From Phycisphaerales bacterium (GTDB taxonomy: Bacteria > Planctomycetota > Phycisphaerae > WQYP01): a stretch of 64,000 nucleotides of DNA. Of the stretch, positions 25,764 to 38,574 are shown piece after piece. Numbering within the stretch: the first letter of the stretch is position 1; every line of letters begins with the position of its first letter. The notes below the pieces were generated by a model that saw only the letters and a list, made by a program, of their open reading frames with translations, ran no database searches and was not told the origin of the DNA. The stretch is taken from contig WQYP01000005.1 in the NCBI GenBank assembly GCA_009781185.1, positions 1 through 64,000 on the forward strand. The letters run 5' to 3'. A program made the translations under genes and the position numbers.

Positions 25764-25796
25764 AGTTTCGAGTTTCAAGTTTCGAGTTTCCAGTTT
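25764..25796. repeat. 'gtttcNa' heptamer array (single arm)
   Basis: 'agtttcgagtttcaagtttcgagtttccagttt', between rplQ and rpoA. Confidence 0.85.
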
Positions 25797-25798
25797 TT

Positions 25799-26809
25799 TT
25801 ACTGGGCGGCGGGCTGTTCTGTGCCGCCGATGACCATACCCAGGGAGAGCCCCAGGTCTTGCAGCTTGCGTTTCACTTCGCGGAGGCTTGTTTTGCCGAA
25901 GCTGCGTACTTTCAGCAAATCGCCTTCCGTCAATTTGACCAAGTCGCCGATCGTGTGGATCTTCGCCGATTCGAGACAGTTGCTGGCACGGACCGAGAGC
26001 TCCATCGCGCCGATCGGCTGGTTCAGCTTGCCCTGCAACTCCTCGTTCATCTGCGGCGTGGCCACCTGGGTGTTGTCGGGCAGTTCGGCGTCGAGATTGT
26101 CGCCCGGCTCGAAATACTGAACGAAGGCATTGAGATGCTTTCGCAGAATTTTGGCCGCTTCGACCAGTGCCATTTCCGGCGTGACTGTGCCGTCGGTCCA
26201 GATTTCGAGGATCAAGCGGTCGTAGTTGGTTTTCTGGCCGACGCGGGTGTCTTCGGTTTTGTAGCGAACGCGTGTTACCGGCGAATAGATGGAGTCGATC
26301 GGAATGACGCCGATGATCTGTTCTTCCGGCGTGTTTTCAGCCGCCGTGACGAAGCCGCGGCCTTTGTGGACTTCCAGTTCCATGTTGAACTCGACGTCGC
26401 TGGTCAACGTCGCAATGTGCTGATTTTTGTTGTGAATCACGACGGCGGCGTCGCCTTGCAGGTCGGCGGCTGTTACCACGCACGGGCCTTTCTTGACCAC
26501 GGTGAGCGTCTTGGCGACGTCCGCATCCATCGACATGATGATACTCTTGACGTTGAGGATGATGTCGGTGACGTCTTCTGTGACGCCTTCGATCTGGGCA
26601 AATTCATGGTCGACGCCAGCGATTTTGACGGAGATGGCGGCGGCGCCTTCGAGCGAGGAAAGCAGGATGCGGCGAAGGGAATTGCCGACGGTGGTGCCGA
26701 AGCCGCGTTCGAAGGGTTCGACGATGAACCTGCCGTAGGTTTCGGTCTGGACGCTCTTGTCCGGTTCGACCCGGGTGGGCAGCTCAAGCCCGCGCCAACG
26801 AATACGCAT
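25799..26809 (-). CDS. rpoA: DNA-directed RNA polymerase subunit alpha
   Basis: N-terminal domain, plus C-terminal domain 'LSVRASNCLESAKIHTIGDLV'. The ATG at 26809 ('MRIRWRGLELP') has an aagga RBS. The ORF also remains open up to 26866. Confidence 0.95.
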   Translation of the reverse strand: MRIRWRGLELPTRVEPDKSVQTETYGRFIVEPFERGFGTTVGNSLRRILLSSLEGAAAISVKIAGVDHEFAQIEGVTEDVTDIILNVKSIIMSMDADVAKTLTVVKKGPCVVTAADLQGDAAVVIHNKNQHIATLTSDVEFNMELEVHKGRGFVTAAENTPEEQIIGVIPIDSIYSPVTRVRYKTEDTRVGQKTNYDRLILEIWTDGTVTPEMALVEAAKILRKHLNAFVQYFEPGDNLDAELPDNTQVATPQMNEELQGKLNQPIGAMELSVRASNCLESAKIHTIGDLVKLTEGDLLKVRSFGKTSLREVKRKLQDLGLSLGMVIGGTEQPAAQ

Positions 26810-26889
26810 AAAGGTGTCCTTTCTAATGACCGCCGCCGGATTATCGCTCACGAGAGCATCTGTCACGGACAGCGAGAGTAACTTACTTT

Positions 26890-26984
26890 GGAGCCAAGCC
26901 AGAAGTTAAAAGTTATAAAGTTAAAAGGTAAAAGGTAAAGATAGCTCGAAACTGGAAACCTTCTGGCTATTGGCTTCTAGCTTC
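26890..26984. repeat. Heptamer-arm palindrome (gaagcca type)
   Basis: 'ggagccaagccagaag' ... 'ccttctggctattggcttctagcttc'. The loop contains 'ctcgaaactggaaac'. Confidence 0.8.
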
Positions 26985-26988
26985 TTTG

Positions 26989-27369
26989 TTACACGCGGCG
27001 TTTCTTTGGGGGGCGGCAGCCGTTGTGGGGGAGTGGGGTGTTGTCTTCGATGGCGGTGATTTTCAGGCCGCTGTTTTGGAGGGCGGTGATGGCCGATTCG
27101 CGGCCGGAACCGGGGCCTTTGACGCGCACTTCGACTTCCTGCAAGCCGTACTTTTTGGCCTTGGCGGCACAGTTTTCCGCGGCGCGAGTGGCGGCGAAGG
27201 GTGTGCTCTTGCGGGCGCCTTTGAAGCCGACGGTGCCGGCGGAATCCCATGCGAGGGTTTCGCCATTGACATCGGTGATGGTTACCTGCGTGTTATTGAA
27301 GCTTGCGTTGATGTGAGCAACGCCTTTGACGACATTTTTTCTGATTTTCTTTTTGCCGGCTTTCGCCAT
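26989..27369 (-). CDS. rpsK: 30S ribosomal protein S11
   Basis: '[19 protein letters not shown].....[14 protein letters not shown]'. Confidence 0.95.
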
Positions 27370-27501
27370 GAGGGGTTCCTTTATGTAGTGGGCTTCGATC
27401 GGATTCGGCCGAGCAACGCGCTTGGCCAGTCCTCACCCGGAAATCCAAAAGGGATATAGTTTACTCAGTTCATTGACTCATTTCCATTGCGTTGCGTTGA
27501 C

Positions 27502-37262: not shown

Positions 37263-37265
37263 TTG

Positions 37266-37296
37266 AATTTCCAGTTTCGAGTTTCCAGTTTCCAGT
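37266..37296. repeat. 'gtttcNa' heptamer array (single arm)
   Basis: 'aatttccagtttcgagtttccagtttccagt', between rpsN and rplE. Confidence 0.85.
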
Positions 37297-37300
37297 CGTT

Positions 37301-38131
37301 TTATTTACGTGTTTTTTCTTCTTCTGTACGGAAGGGCATGCCGAGGTGTTTCAGCAAGGCGAAACCTGCGGCGTTGTCTGCTGCCGAGGTAACGATTGTG
37401 ATGTTCATGCCTTGGTGGAATACCACCGCGGCGGAGTCGACTTCTGAGAAGACGGTTTGTTCGGTGATGCCCATGTTGTAGTTGCCGCGGCCGTCGAAGC
37501 CCTTGGGATTCAAACCGCGGAAGTCTTTGACACGCGGAATTGCCAGCGTGATGAGGCGATCCAGGAATTCCCACATGCGGCCGCCACGGAGTGTTACTTT
37601 TGCGCCGATTTCCATGCCTTCGCGGAGTTTGAAATTTGAGACGCTTTTCTTGGCTTTGCAGATAACGGCTTTCTGGCCGGCGATGGCGGTCAGTTCTTTG
37701 ATTGCCGCTTCCAGACGCGGCCGTTCCGCGATTGCTTTGCCCAGGCCCATCGAGACGACCACCTTCTCTACTTTCGGCAGCGCCATTTTGTTCTTGATTT
37801 TCAAATCGGTCATCAGTTTCGGAGCGATCTGTTCTTCAAAACGTTTTTTCAAACGCGGCATGTAGCCCTGCGGAAAGGCGAGAACTTCGCCGCCTTCTTC
37901 TTTCTTTTTGCCGCCACCTCCCCCACCGCCGCCTTTGGCTTTGCCTTTGTCGGCTTTTTCAGTTTTGCCGCCTTTTCCTTCGGGCGCTGCGCCTGCGGCT
38001 TCGCCGCCGGCTTCTTTCGCCTTCGCCGCCATTTCCGCTTTCTTGGCGGCCTTGGCAGCTTTTTCGGCTTCGATCTGCTCGGGTGTCTTGGCCGGCTTAT
38101 CCTGTTTCTTTTCTTCTTTTTCTTTCGACAT
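37301..38131 (-). CDS. rplE: 50S ribosomal protein L5 with a ~95 aa Lys/Ala/Gly/Glu-rich N-terminal extension
   Basis: Core '[16 protein letters not shown]...VVVSMGLG...[19 protein letters not shown]'. ATG at 38131 ('[12 protein letters not shown]'). Confidence 0.9.
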
Positions 38132-38215
38132 CGTTTTTACCTCAATCTCGTGAACCCCAAGCACAACTAAAGTTAAAAGGTTTTGTCTTGGTTGTACGAG
38201 TTATTCCTGTTTCAT

Positions 38216-38530
38216 TTATACCTTGCCTAAGTCTGTTCCGGTTTTCACGGCGACACGCCGTTTTTCGCCGTCCTTGATTTGGAATTTCACACGCGTGCCC
38301 TTGCCGGTCTTGGGGTCCAGCGGCAGTACTTTGGAAAGGTGGATCGGCGCTTCCTTGCGAATGCGGCCGCCACGCTGATTTTTTTGCGTCGGCTTGAGAT
38401 GTTTCCAGACGACGTTGATGCCTTCGACGACGACCTGGTCGTTCAGGAGCCGCAGGACCTTGCCGGTCTTGCCTTTGTCGTCACCCGACTGCACGTAAAC
38501 GATATCGTCTTTTTTAATGCGGGCTGCCAT
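38216..38530 (-). CDS. rplX: 50S ribosomal protein L24
   Basis: 'MAARIKKDDIVYVQSGDDKGKTGKVLR' from the ATG at 38530. Confidence 0.9.
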   Translation of the reverse strand: MAARIKKDDIVYVQSGDDKGKTGKVLRLLNDQVVVEGINVVWKHLKPTQKNQRGGRIRKEAPIHLSKVLPLDPKTGKGTRVKFQIKDGEKRRVAVKTGTDLGKV

Positions 38531-38540
38531 AGTTATTCCT

Positions 38541-38574
38541 GAGTTTCGAGTTTCCAATTTCGAGTTTCGAGTTT
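38541..38574. repeat. 'gtttcNa' heptamer array (single arm)
   Basis: 'gagtttcgagtttccaatttcgagtttcgagttt', between rplX and rplN. Confidence 0.85.

Follow-up and report, generated by a model that had tools for sequence, protein, structure and literature searches.

What are hairpins with arms of tandem heptamers doing in the spacers of a ribosomal-protein operon, and how did they arise? The question is raised by the S10/spc/alpha operon on the minus strand of a 64-kb stretch of DNA (the window, analyzed here at its full length), whose host is a member of the Phycisphaerae as judged from its SecY relatives.

Heptamer arrays in the window

Tandem repeats were identified using TRF and a period scan of our own. 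The 64 kb contain 12 strict period-7 arrays of 3.6-4.9 copies each, compared with 0-2 arrays for any other period between 4 and 12, and 100 third-order Markov simulations yielded no strict period-7 array at all. The units in the window are GAAGCCA, GTTTCNA, TTTCGAA and GATTTTC. A preliminary description had reported such arrays in at least ten spacers of the operon. Their presence and positions were confirmed, but the number of spacers with heptamers is nine, the tenth (L6→L18, 35891-35944) carrying a 10-mer array.

Hairpins and single arms were folded as transcripts in the orientation of the mRNA, and hairpins were evaluated by free energy and z score (Table 1). Folded stems are very stable, four hairpins of the operon having stems of −36 to −60 kcal/mol, and single arms are unstructured (0 to −3 kcal/mol). 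The palindromes described at 31195, 31501 and 32577 are well founded (z −9.3 to −9.8), as is the outer stem of the one at 34259, but the palindrome at 26890-26984 is weak and decayed (−22 kcal/mol, z −1.4). The single arms at 25764-25796, 34966-34998, 37268-37296 and 38541-38574 were borne out. Outside the operon, the palindrome at 5959-6106 is indeed a heptamer hairpin, but 5041-5140 is an 8-mer hairpin, 23220-23339 has repeats of about 9 nt and 21311-21337 is a single array. Copies at 49317-49345, 51242-51397 and 51576-51608 extend the earlier list.

Table 1. Repeat arrays and hairpins located in the 64-kb window, with predicted RNA stability and genomic context.
Position	Strand	Element	Fold	Context
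5041..5140		8-mer hairpin, arms TGGTGATC / AAATCACC	−44.9 kcal/mol, z −6.9	Spacer outside the operon
5959..6106		Long imperfect hairpin, GAAGTTC / TTTCGAA arms	−42.9 kcal/mol, z −3.1	Flanked by sigma-factor gene and PQQ-repeat gene
21311..21337	−	Single array, CTTCYGG (mRNA sense)		Fills 48-nt spacer; flanked by aspartyl-tRNA synthetase gene and FtsX-like gene
25764..25796	−	Single-arm heptamer array, GAAACTN x4.7 (mRNA sense)		rpoA→L17 spacer of 48 nt; starts 3 nt past rpoA stop, ends 14 nt ahead of L17 start
26890..26984		Decayed composite palindrome; AGAAGCY-type outer arms, AAGTTAA array inside (26903-26939)	−22.4 kcal/mol, z −1.4	After S11 stop; followed by conserved rpoA leader
31195..31280		Hairpin, 34-nt arms AGAAGCC/AGTAGCC	−60.5 kcal/mol, z −9.3	Starts at L36 stop codon; conserved S13 (alpha-operon) leader 3' of hairpin
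31501..31558		Hairpin, AGTTTCN-unit arms	−35.6 kcal/mol, z −9.5	1-2 nt past infA stop; followed by conserved L36 leader
32576..32666		Hairpin, 34-nt GAAGCCA arms	−59.7 kcal/mol, z −9.8	Begins 13 nt past secY stop; ends 3 nt ahead of map start codon, which lacks a Shine-Dalgarno sequence
34259..34417		Composite hairpin; GAAGCCA arrays as outer arms, GGAAGTT/CGAAGTT heptamers as interior	Outer stem −53 kcal/mol, z −2.5	L15/secY junction; right arm overlaps last L15 codons, 34378-34415 translated as PEARSQKLKA
34966..34998	−	Single-arm array, AGAAGCC x4.7 (mRNA sense)		Starts at S5 stop codon; followed by L15 ribosome-binding region, conserved with relative L002
35891..35944	−	10-mer array		L6→L18 spacer; TTTCGAA heptamer array here in nearest relative, L002
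37268..37296	−	Single-arm array, GGAAACT/CGAAACT		Fills L5→S14 spacer to 6 nt before start codon
38541..38574	−	Single-arm array, CGAAACT x4.9		From 2 nt past L14 stop to L24 ribosome-binding site
49317..49345	+	Array, (AGAAGCC)x4.1		In-frame; codes for linker joining CbiM and PDGLE domains
51242..51397		Hairpin, GAAATTC/TTTCGAA-type arms	−71.4 kcal/mol, z −13.6; highest stability in window	Spacer outside the operon
51576..51608	−	Array, (GATTTTC)x4.7, 33 nt		In-frame in RluA-type pseudouridine synthase gene, between catalytic domain and conserved C-terminal LHA...HP motif

A special tie to the ribosomal operon does not hold, as the window carries the elements in unrelated spacers and in coding regions (three copies are in-frame parts of genes) and as they are spread over many phyla. 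Structured spacers of 40-70 nt are, moreover, usual for this operon in the clade. An assembly artefact can be dismissed as the source, since each arm would fit within a read and is located inside a contig and since equivalent hairpins are found in long-read-style and many independent assemblies; the hairpin of one relative is identical in two samples processed with different assembly tools.

Placement, polarity and unit turnover

Across 0.91 Mb of relatives' operons, in which gene boundaries are tblastn approximations and loci are in part not independent, period 7 prevails with 65 arrays, compared with 17 for period 8, 11 for period 6 and 3 for period 10. Heptamer arrays lie outside identified operon genes in 76 cases and inside in one, with genes making up 86% of the span. 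Hairpins precede conserved leader sequences, the median distance being 6 nt from the stop codon to the first arm and 38 nt from the second arm to the next start, and anchoring to the stop codon is likewise found in other phyla. The arm with more G than C comes first in 45 hairpins and second in 3, a polarity repeated in an independent set of viral contigs (48 vs 4). Hairpins made of GAAGCCA are convergent with the G-rich array first in 31 of 32 cases, their arm asymmetry being one of purine versus pyrimidine, not of G versus C.

A comparison of the same spacers in related genomes had been proposed to reveal variation in presence and unit number. Heptamer (sometimes 8-mer) arrays do recur at matching junctions, and their units differ; no copy-number polymorphism was seen in L202 and L353, which are identical at the hairpin and form the sole same-species pair. 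At the L36→S13 junction, the hairpins of four genomes belong to four families without relation to one another, and the same conserved leader stands behind each of them. S5→L15 holds GAAGCCA, GGTAATT/AATTACC, AATTAAC or a REP-like hairpin in relatives whose L15 is 88-95% identical. The C-terminus of L15 in the window is a translated heptamer array, and a relative with 95% identical L15 has retained the native stop 3 nt ahead of that array. Many units have a CAGT/ACTG core in common. Array pairs share a unit in 30% of comparisons within a genome versus 8% between genomes (permutation p<0.0005), and the arrangement [AGAAGCC x3, AGTAGCC, AGAAG] recurs in three spacers of two genomes, and a further MAG of the Phycisphaerae has it as well. 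The loops that separate the arms show no relationship from one copy to another.

The sequence (GAAGCCA)3 was found at more than 115 loci in many phyla. In viral contigs it occurs at 76 loci, versus 5, 2, 23 and 21 for four composition-matched permutations, which makes it 3-38 times commoner. Several GAAGCCA hairpins of other phyla occupy precisely the interval that separates two convergent stop codons, and some of these have A-rich upstream and T-rich downstream flanks. Rfam gave zero matches at the gathering threshold and, at E≤1, only generic miRNA-precursor hairpin models well under threshold.

Relation to known bacterial repeats

The elements are heptanucleotide simple-sequence repeats of the STRR or long-SSR type, present genome-wide and in many other bacteria, and those of the window belong to an already known class of bacterial heptamer repeats. 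Like long SSRs, they have at least three head-to-tail copies, an excess of period 7 and a mostly noncoding location. According to the survey of Mrazek, Guo and Shah (2007), as cited in PMC4679880 and PMC4692102, long SSRs have units of 5-11 nt, are commoner in non-pathogens with larger genomes and are noncoding except for unit lengths divisible by three; heptamers are their most abundant class, for which slippage was proposed. Palindromes, polarity and stop-codon anchoring, features of the present elements, are without description in that survey as cited there.

The GGGAATC pairs of Xanthomonas (Rehm et al. 2015, PMC4692102) and Nostoc GGGGAYT likewise consist of tandem 7-nt units and are about 90% intergenic. 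In Xanthomonas there are 70-75 pairs per genome, lying nearer the 3' end of the upstream ORF, as here, always convergent with the G-rich array first and with stem-loop potential; they are transcribed, and length and sequence differ between related species while the single or pair type is kept (PMC4692102). The present elements also include same-unit convergent arrays close together with the G-rich array first, but they occur in another phylum, have other units and several unit families per genome, are packed into an essential operon and have in some cases been captured in frame by genes. Unlike Xanthomonas GGGAATC, units here are without G-tracts (no GGG run), so that a G-quadruplex is impossible.

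Mazel and colleagues reportedly described the cyanobacterial STRR heptamers CCCCAGT, TTGGTCA and CAACAGT in 1990. STRRs and Nostoc TTTTGAA (bioRxiv 10.1101/2022.06.06.494920) resemble the present elements in having several heptamer families per genome and similar units, and in being intergenic and often adjoining start codons; relative L125 carries (TTGGTCA)n and L005 GTTTTGA. STRRs, however, are defined for heterocystous cyanobacteria with consensus units of their own, and hairpins predominate here; hairpin pairs are few in Nostoc (PMC4692102). STRR proper is ruled out by the Phycisphaerae host and the non-STRR units. The TAACTGA repeats of marine Beggiatoaceae (MacGregor 2015, PMC4679880) are intergenic heptamers of patchy, multi-phylum spread, present also in ribosomal-protein operons and directly before start codons, for which a role in translation was proposed. 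They comprise a single unit that contains stop codons, in 169 direct versus 1 inverted orientation and with no predicted structure (PMC4679880), in contrast to the several units, many inverted pairs and stop-codon anchoring seen here.

REP, BIME and REPIN elements (PMC3116915, PMC3733652) are, as here, extragenic palindromes at gene 3' ends and within operons, inverted doublets in genome-specific, dispersed families. The present elements share with REPs the many dispersed copies of extragenic palindromes at gene 3' ends. REP arms, however, are unique sequences of 20-40 nt with a GTAG/CGTC tag and linked to RAYTs, whereas the arms here are tandem 7-mers of variable number, without such a conserved arm or tag and with no conserved flank or end among 148 GAAGCCA arrays. 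They do not match MITEs either, their loops being unrelated between copies and flank conservation or duplication being absent. In E. coli, transcribed REP stem-loops stabilize the upstream mRNA.

Origin and role of the elements

We favor, with a probability of about 0.55, heptamer elements grown by slippage, often as inverted pairs. As inserts that fold on themselves behind stop codons, they would be tolerated and also filtered. Arrays would grow and shrink by replication slippage, and the inverted arm would stem from template switching or inverted duplication; with an inverted copy a few dozen bases downstream, transcript and single-stranded DNA fold into a stem of 25-35 bp. Units may be copied between spacers of one genome by ectopic conversion or by some form of mobilization, which would homogenize them inside a genome and let them diverge between genomes. 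The elements would thus be fast-turnover inserts and not a device of the ribosomal operon, with selection as a filter through which only forms compatible with operon expression persist. Inserts that pass would lie downstream of a stop codon and ahead of the next gene's conserved leader or ribosome-binding site. They would also fold on themselves, so that they are looped out and not exposed as long untranslated single-stranded RNA. Finally, their purine- or G-rich arm would be transcribed first, so that the pyrimidine- or C-rich arm is paired on emergence; avoidance of Rho loading is our favored candidate reason for this order. The stems probably resemble REP/BIME elements in impeding 3'→5' exonucleases, in being potential substrates of RNase III and in insulating cistrons from one another, all as a by-product, and A-rich single arms by start codons may serve as unstructured spacer or standby sequence. 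The elements thus probably act incidentally as REP-type intercistronic stem-loops.

The preliminary description had suggested a self-propagating or slippage-generated family of stem-loops. Stem-loops of tandem 7-mers do exist, and slippage fits the period of 7, the turnover of units and their sharing within genomes. The roles that the description put forward, in RNA processing, in RNA stability or as insulators, are plausible: abutment on stop codons and a fixed 5'→3' polarity speak for them, whereas the lack of a G.U excess, of a U-tract and of an Rfam family is neutral or speaks against them. Purely local slippage, however, leaves the recurrence of units at many spacers and the GAAGCCA excess unaccounted for, and the slippage model offers no reason for the preference for 7 nt.

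It is also possible, if less probable, that the hairpins are selected intercistronic RNA elements, a post-stop stem-loop being required in the clade and heptamers being the quickest route to a stem. Candidate roles would be processing by RNase III or RNase Y, stabilization of 3' ends or drawing the stop codon and the next start together for re-initiation. Hairpins are conserved in position despite unrelated sequences at L36→S13, S11→rpoA, adk/secY→map and S5→L15, and a hairpin at the matching junction in all close relatives makes positive selection for the stem-loop possible, beyond tolerance. The tight anchoring to stop codons, the fixed 5'→3' polarity, equal on either strand, and the secY→map stem ending 3 nt before an AUG without Shine-Dalgarno point the same way. 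Stem length fits as well, stems of at least 30 bp being classical RNase III substrates. Many more distant relatives, however, have short hairpin-free spacers, identical array types are also found as single arms and as in-frame parts of genes, and arms in other genomes can be very unequal in length. In addition, G.U pairs do not outnumber A.C mismatches when the stems are read as transcribed (11 vs 15), and orthologous hairpins, being replaced and not conserved, yield no covariation support.

The sharing of units within genomes and the same internal arrangement at several loci and genomes would also be expected of non-autonomous mobile elements of the REPIN/MITE type, with heptamer arrays as inverted ends, a transposase encoded elsewhere and a preference for post-stop targets, an explanation that we regard as unlikely. 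A hairpin-recognizing single-strand enzyme could impose the polarity, several dispersed hairpins of the genome are REP-like, with some occurring in relatives at sites that are not orthologous, and contigs of a co-occurring relative break within arrays, as expected of multi-copy repeats. Against this, loops are unrelated between copies, the 148 GAAGCCA arrays lack a target duplication as well as a conserved flank or end, and single arms and graded unit variants resemble slippage products. No transposase, RAYT or reverse transcriptase was detected by Pfam among the genes of the ribosomal operon and 31 further, larger ORFs, several of the scanned ORFs lacking any Pfam match.

An improbable reading is that the arrays are binding sites for a protein each of whose monomers would read about 7 nt of single-stranded RNA or DNA, exerting global post-transcriptional control through a candidate such as a cold-shock-domain protein, ribosomal protein S1, a CsrA-like factor or a DNA-binding regulator. 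Single arms do lie directly before the L17, S14 and L24 start codons, relatives have related A-rich or AGGA-containing units (GAAACNN, AGGACTC) at the same junctions, and units are genome-specific but related across lineages. Global control has been proposed for Beggiatoaceae TAACTGA (PMC4679880) and Nostoc heptamers (bioRxiv 10.1101/2022.06.06.494920), and PMC4679880 cites a binding footprint of about one heptamer per Csp protein. Double-stranded stems, however, would mask single-strand sites in most copies, several unrelated units stand side by side in one genome, junction units are swapped for unrelated ones in close relatives, and none of the candidate proteins was identified. Terminators or attenuators, bidirectional between convergent genes, are very unlikely despite the location just past stop codons and the GAAGCCA hairpins that fill convergent stop gaps in other phyla: the operon hairpins of the window end in tails without U-tracts (GUCAAUUUUGG, AUCCAUG, GAAUAUUUGCC), a scan gave 33 terminators versus 34.4 expected, its sole pass in the operon being a 5-bp inner stem at 31237-31250, the flanks of 140 arrays are not T-rich, and the hairpins lie within an operon whose downstream genes need transcription.

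Going beyond slippage-grown inserts, we consider it doubtful but worth stating that hairpins with heptamer arms form one pan-bacterial, self-propagating class with rules of its own, namely stop-codon anchoring, the purine- or G-rich arm first and related units. The units may share an AG start and a CCAG/CAGT core, as in AGAAGCC, AGTAGCC, AGTTGCC, AGTRATC, the STRRs and, on the other strand, TAACTGA. Copying may then depend on sequence, for example through CTG/CAG priming or nicking every 7 nt or through a hairpin-specific single-strand enzyme. If this were true, cells would separate cistrons by hairpins, which would act as a shield against Rho, as a stop to exonucleases or as a means of drawing the stop codon and the next start together.

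Period-7 arrays and hairpins in the operon spacers

Under one scoring rule the window holds 12 arrays of period 7, as against 0–2 for each of the remaining periods between 4 and 12, and 100 third-order Markov simulations of the window yielded none, so that a chance origin was rejected. The arrays listed in a preliminary description were recovered, at the places given there, with TRF and a simple period scan. At least ten operon spacers had been said to carry heptamers; nine do, while the tenth (L6–L18; spacers are named by their flanking genes in mRNA order) holds a 10-mer array. 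Besides the GAAGCCA and GTTTCNA units noted there, TTTCGAA/GAAGTTC and GATTTTC units occur in the window, to whose 64 kb our array census of this genome refers.

Among the long palindromes claimed, L36–S13, SecY–map and infA–L36 gave stable RNA folds in mRNA sense, whereas S11–rpoA proved weak and decayed. In the L15–SecY element the outer stem is real and the interior contains further heptamers. The four single arms are practically without structure when folded as RNA in mRNA sense. TRF thresholds overlook decayed arms, so that in the array counts some 'single' arrays are hairpin halves. An assembly artefact was rejected, since the hairpin of the related locus L202 is identical in a second sample (L353).

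The window has a G+C content of 57%, and its nearest SecY proteins (79%, 69% and ∼60–63% identical) place it in the class Phycisphaerae, Planctomycetota. The studied part of the operon reads, in mRNA order, L16, L29, S17, L14, L24, L5, S14, S8, L6, L18, S5, L15, SecY, map, infA, L36, S13, an inserted 1011-residue leucine-rich-repeat/fibronectin-III (LRR/fn3) protein, S11, rpoA and L17, and window 22679-44244 is matched at 100% identity by one contig of ENA assembly ERZ27257292. The gene content is unusual. In relatives, S11 directly follows S13 without the LRR/fn3 gene, which here lies within the alpha operon and contains a 63-nt tandem repeat. S4 between S11 and rpoA and L30 are absent from the cluster in the window and in the compared loci L003–L005 and L122, and adk, present between secY and map in relatives, is missing there in the window. 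L5 carries a Lys/Ala/Glu-rich N-terminal extension of ∼100 residues (longest ORF 287 residues); gene calls in relatives are also long (264–276 residues).

Repeat elements and associated features of the window
Feature	Position	Remarks
S10/spc/alpha ribosomal-protein cluster	~25280 to 44244	minus strand; Pfam and called genes
L36–S13 hairpin	31195-31280	-60.5 kcal/mol, z -9.3
infA–L36 hairpin	31501-31558	-35.6 kcal/mol, z -9.5
SecY–map hairpin	32576-32666	-59.7 kcal/mol, z -9.8
L15–SecY hairpin	34259-34417	
S11–rpoA palindrome	26890-26984	weak, decayed
rpoA–L17 single arm	25764-25796	
S5–L15 single arm	34966-34998	
L5–S14 single arm	37268-37296	
L14–L24 single arm	38541-38574	
Heptamer element, non-operon spacer	5959-6106	
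Heptamer element, non-operon spacer	21311-21337	
Heptamer element, non-operon spacer	51242-51397	-71 kcal/mol
8-mer version, non-operon spacer	5041-5140	
In-frame copy, last residues of L15		
In-frame copy, CbiM-PDGLE interdomain linker	49317-49345	
In-frame copy, RluA-type pseudouridine synthase	51576-51608	33-nt insert; boundary of catalytic domain and conserved C-terminal motif
Leader core, S13	31122-31190	
Leader core, L36	31397-31500	
Leader core, rpoA	26811-26890	
Leader core, S11	27370-27450	
LRR/fn3 gene	27502-30537	between S13 and S11
63-nt tandem repeat	28057-29159	in LRR/fn3 gene
L5 gene	37301-38164	
RNase Y gene	56260-57846	N-terminal region, KH and HD domains
GAGCCGCGACCGT[AC]AGGGAGCG doublets	22124-22197, 30614-30683, 47104-47178, 48511-48585, 50343-50416, 52644-52711, 63926-64000	
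GAGCCGCGACCGT[AC]AGGGAGCG single copy	51402-51423	
hpB	7507, 9402, 18869, 25150, 39656, 40917	all plus strand
hpC	11521, 11544, 39680, 46562	
hpD	890, 8321, 14894, 38985	
GGGTGACA / TGTCACCC 8-mer array pair	14775-14798, 14930-14961	inverted; G-rich first in mRNA sense

The heptamer elements are not an operon device, as the same kinds occur in unrelated spacers and in frame within genes. At least four further dispersed hairpin families with unique arms are present, making the heptamer hairpins one among several repeat families in the spacers of the window. A dispersed REPIN-like repeat, GAGCCGCGACCGT[AC]AGGGAGCG, comprises 15 half-sites with seven inverted doublets ∼50 nt apart, one of them between S13 and the inserted LRR/fn3 gene. 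Three families of small GC-rich hairpins with unique arms were designated hpB, hpC and hpD; two of them recur in relatives, hpC between L15 and SecY in L202/L353 and hpD between S5 and L15 in L002, the nearest relative. Their presence at such non-orthologous sites suggests that hpC and hpD may be mobile. Where a Na+/H+ exchanger gene meets a polyprenyl synthase gene, an inverted pair of 8-mer arrays surrounds an hpD hairpin.

Anchoring at stop codons and turnover at fixed junctions

Every element starts 0–14 nt past the upstream stop codon in mRNA sense, as in the contexts TAA-AGAAGCC (L36), TAG-AAGAAGCC (S5) and TAG-AAGTTTCC (infA). The part of the spacer 3' of the elements is conserved among relatives and consists of leader cores ending in a ribosome-binding site, which precede S13, L36, rpoA, S11 and L6. 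With the element at the stop codon and a conserved leader behind it, the elements look like insertions that separate the stop codon from a shorter spacer of older origin. The S5–L15 spacer measures 38 nt in the related locus L003 and 189 nt in L004, where a 150-nt hairpin is followed by 38 nt. In the operons the first arm lies a median of 6 nt behind the stop codon and the second arm a median of 38 nt ahead of the next start; in other phyla, using crude ORF calls, the stop-side distance is ≤7 nt in 15 of 28 cases and the start-side distance <16 nt in 0 of 22, and several hairpins occupy precisely the stretch that separates two convergent stop codons. At the start side, conservation of the peptide MKINLKSRRDLELM with synonymous changes in L003–L005 places the true start of map at the ATG at 32575, so that the SecY–map stem stops 3 nt short of the AUG without a Shine-Dalgarno sequence. 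GAAACTN A-rich single arms lie immediately 5' of the start codons of L17, S14 and L24.

The cores upstream of S13, L36, rpoA and S11 are retained across relatives ∼60% identical in SecY and are likely autoregulatory leaders. The S13 leader gave a weak, sub-threshold match to Rfam Alpha_RBS, the alpha-operon ribosome-binding site (21.6 bits, E 0.29); the repeats themselves are not matched by this model.

Period-7 arrays are present in operon spacers of all four relatives with SecY 62–79% identical, one of which also has period-8 arrays, and their units are unlike those of the window or merely related to them. A further 80 metagenome loci (SecY 49–60% identical, 0.91 Mb) contain 65 arrays of period 7, 17 of period 8 and 11 of period 6, counts in which some loci are duplicates or overlaps. 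In the operon spans of relatives, with gene boundaries from tblastn and ORF extension, 76 arrays fall outside and 1 inside identified genes, which make up 86% of the sequence. In this clade the operon normally has spacers of 40–70 nt for which strong structure is predicted.

A junction keeps its hairpin while the sequence of that hairpin is replaced. The L36 stop is followed by a GAAGCCA hairpin in the window, by a TTCATCG hairpin in L003, by an 8-mer hairpin in L005 and by a small GC-rich REP-like one in L004, and behind each stands one and the same S13 leader. Closer relatives, 88–95% identical, were taken from the L15 protein cluster. The S5–L15 junction carries GAAGCCA in the window and L201, GGTAATT/AATTACC in L202 and, identically, L353, AATTAAC in L354 and a REP-like hairpin in L002. 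L201, which shares its sample with the window, retains the native L15 stop (…KPVAKK, TAA) with AAGAAGCCAGAAGCCAGAAGCCAGTAGC 3 nt later; the window lacks ∼12 nt at this point, and L15 therefore reads into the array and ends in PEARSQKLKA. Copy number was compared between the window and L001 (same sample) and between L202 and L353, and each pair is identical. Among co-occurring relatives, short contigs terminate right inside heptamer arrays (L201 at both ends, L354 at its 5' end), suggesting that the arrays fragment short-read assemblies.

Arm order, unit sharing and occurrence in other phyla

The first arm has more G than C in 45 of 53 hairpins and less in 3, and is purine-rich in 45 versus 8. 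For GAAGCCA-type hairpins (arms within one mismatch) the purine-rich AGAAGCC-type arm comes first in 31 of 32, and an independent set of viral contigs, some of them overlapping, gave 48 versus 4. A palindrome being identical on both strands, this asymmetry cannot stem from the direction of replication or transcription; arm order is inherent in the 5'→3' direction of the strand that folds, be it RNA or single-stranded DNA. The reported convergent orientation of Xanthomonas GGGAATC pairs obeys the same rule (PMC4692102). Units are shared (within one mismatch) by 30% of array pairs >300 nt apart in the same genome, compared to 8% between genomes (permutation p<0.0005). One arrangement, three AGAAGCC, one AGTAGCC and AGAAG, recurs in two spacers of the window and also in L201 and a further Phycisphaerae MAG.

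The exact 21-mer (GAAGCCA)3 was found in >115 loci of a one-genome-per-species collection, with ∼0.3 expected by chance. Among the matches listed, hosts include Acidobacteriota, Planctomycetota, Verrucomicrobiota, Desulfobacterota, Nitrospinota, Bacteroidota, Cyanobacteria and others, and many copies form plus/minus pairs separated by 20–140 nt; when the genome-scan loci were compared with the window by BLAST, no orthologous regions emerged. In viral contigs, again among the matches listed, (GAAGCCA)3 occurs at 76 loci, four composition-matched permutations at 5, 2, 23 and 21, and (AGTTGCC)3, the relatives' commonest unit, at 23. GAAGCCA as a unique signal was rejected, other heptamer arrays being likewise far above chance; it is a favoured unit, one popular unit among several.

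Units of unrelated genomes often have AACT, ACTG or CTGA cores in common, ∼threefold over shuffled units, and these resemble Beggiatoaceae TAACTGA on the other strand. They also resemble cyanobacterial STRR units. Four IMG/VR contigs classed as viral (L289, L300, L302, L303) each carry about ten heptamer-arm hairpins within 7–12 kb, with AGTRATC as first and ACTGATY as second arm, one mismatch from TAACTGA.

Origin and significance of the elements

The elements are heptanucleotide simple-sequence arrays, often inverted pairs, intergenic, stop-anchored and polar, with units common within genomes and replaced between them. We infer that arrays would grow by slippage, that the second arm would be gained through template switching and that units would spread among spacers through some copying process. 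Only forms tolerable to the operon would persist, namely those placed behind the stop codon that fold on themselves and have their pyrimidine-rich arm transcribed second, so that it is never exposed; the favoured reason for this order would be that Rho loading on untranslated C-rich RNA is avoided. By analogy with REP elements and phage intercistronic sites, stems of ≥30 bp would presumably act as barriers to 3' exonucleases and are candidate RNase III substrates. The window also encodes RNase Y, of relevance as a candidate enzyme for processing polycistronic transcripts.

In the main rival explanation selection acts on the very presence of a stem-loop behind each stop codon, and the positional conservation of the hairpins argues for this view. 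However, many relatives have no hairpins, and pairing shows no strand-specific bias: in 22 hairpins of known transcription direction the stems are 91% Watson–Crick, and the mismatches (11 G·U, 15 A·C, 34 other) give no sign of pairing upkeep specific to the transcribed strand. The surplus of transversion-type mismatches fits out-of-register unit variants better than point decay. A REPIN-like mobile element is less likely. MITE/REP anatomy was rejected, as 148 GAAGCCA arrays among the matches listed show neither conserved flanks or ends nor target duplications, and loops are unrelated from copy to copy; Pfam detected no transposase, RAYT or reverse transcriptase in the ORFs scanned, which were the genes of the ribosomal operon plus 31 others in the window. 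A protein-binding array is likewise less likely. Intrinsic terminators were rejected, given no U-tracts, no calls on the hairpins in a terminator/promoter scan and no enrichment.

Growth by slippage would agree with the literature. Heptamers are the most abundant long simple repeat class of prokaryotes, and polymerase slippage has been proposed for long simple repeats (Mrazek et al. 2007, as related in PMC4679880 and PMC4692102). Xanthomonas genomes each contain 70–75 convergent GGGAATC pairs, intergenic, close to the 3' end of the upstream ORF and differing in length between species (PMC4692102), Beggiatoaceae carry TAACTGA direct repeats, ribosomal-protein operons included (PMC4679880), and Nostoc heptamers near start codons alter reporter expression (bioRxiv 10.1101/2022.06.06.494920). 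The elements described here belong to this known, poorly understood kind. Our literature search found no paper with a GAAGCCA array and no description of such repeats for Planctomycetes; nor, in the accessible parts of the literature, did we find stop anchoring, the purine/G-rich arm coming first or within-genome unit sharing with turnover between genomes stated. Stop anchoring, arm order across phyla and junction-by-junction turnover thus seem to be the new parts.

Even as merely tolerated junk, the arrays matter for assembly, as contigs break at them, and for annotation. A whole-window Rfam search gave no matches at the gathering threshold; at E≤1, apart from Alpha_RBS on the S13 leader, it returned only sub-threshold miRNA-precursor models, generic hairpin families whose matches to the arrays pose an annotation risk. 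The arrays are moreover able to remodel proteins, as seen in the L15 tail, the CbiM-PDGLE linker and the pseudouridine synthase insertion. What makes the case unusual is that the repeats reside within an operon that ranks among the most conserved and most highly expressed and whose gene order fixes orthologous positions and thereby makes gain, loss and replacement directly readable. Three simple rules emerge: elements are anchored at stop codons, their purine/G-rich arm precedes the other, and array units are shared inside a genome yet turn over from one genome to the next.
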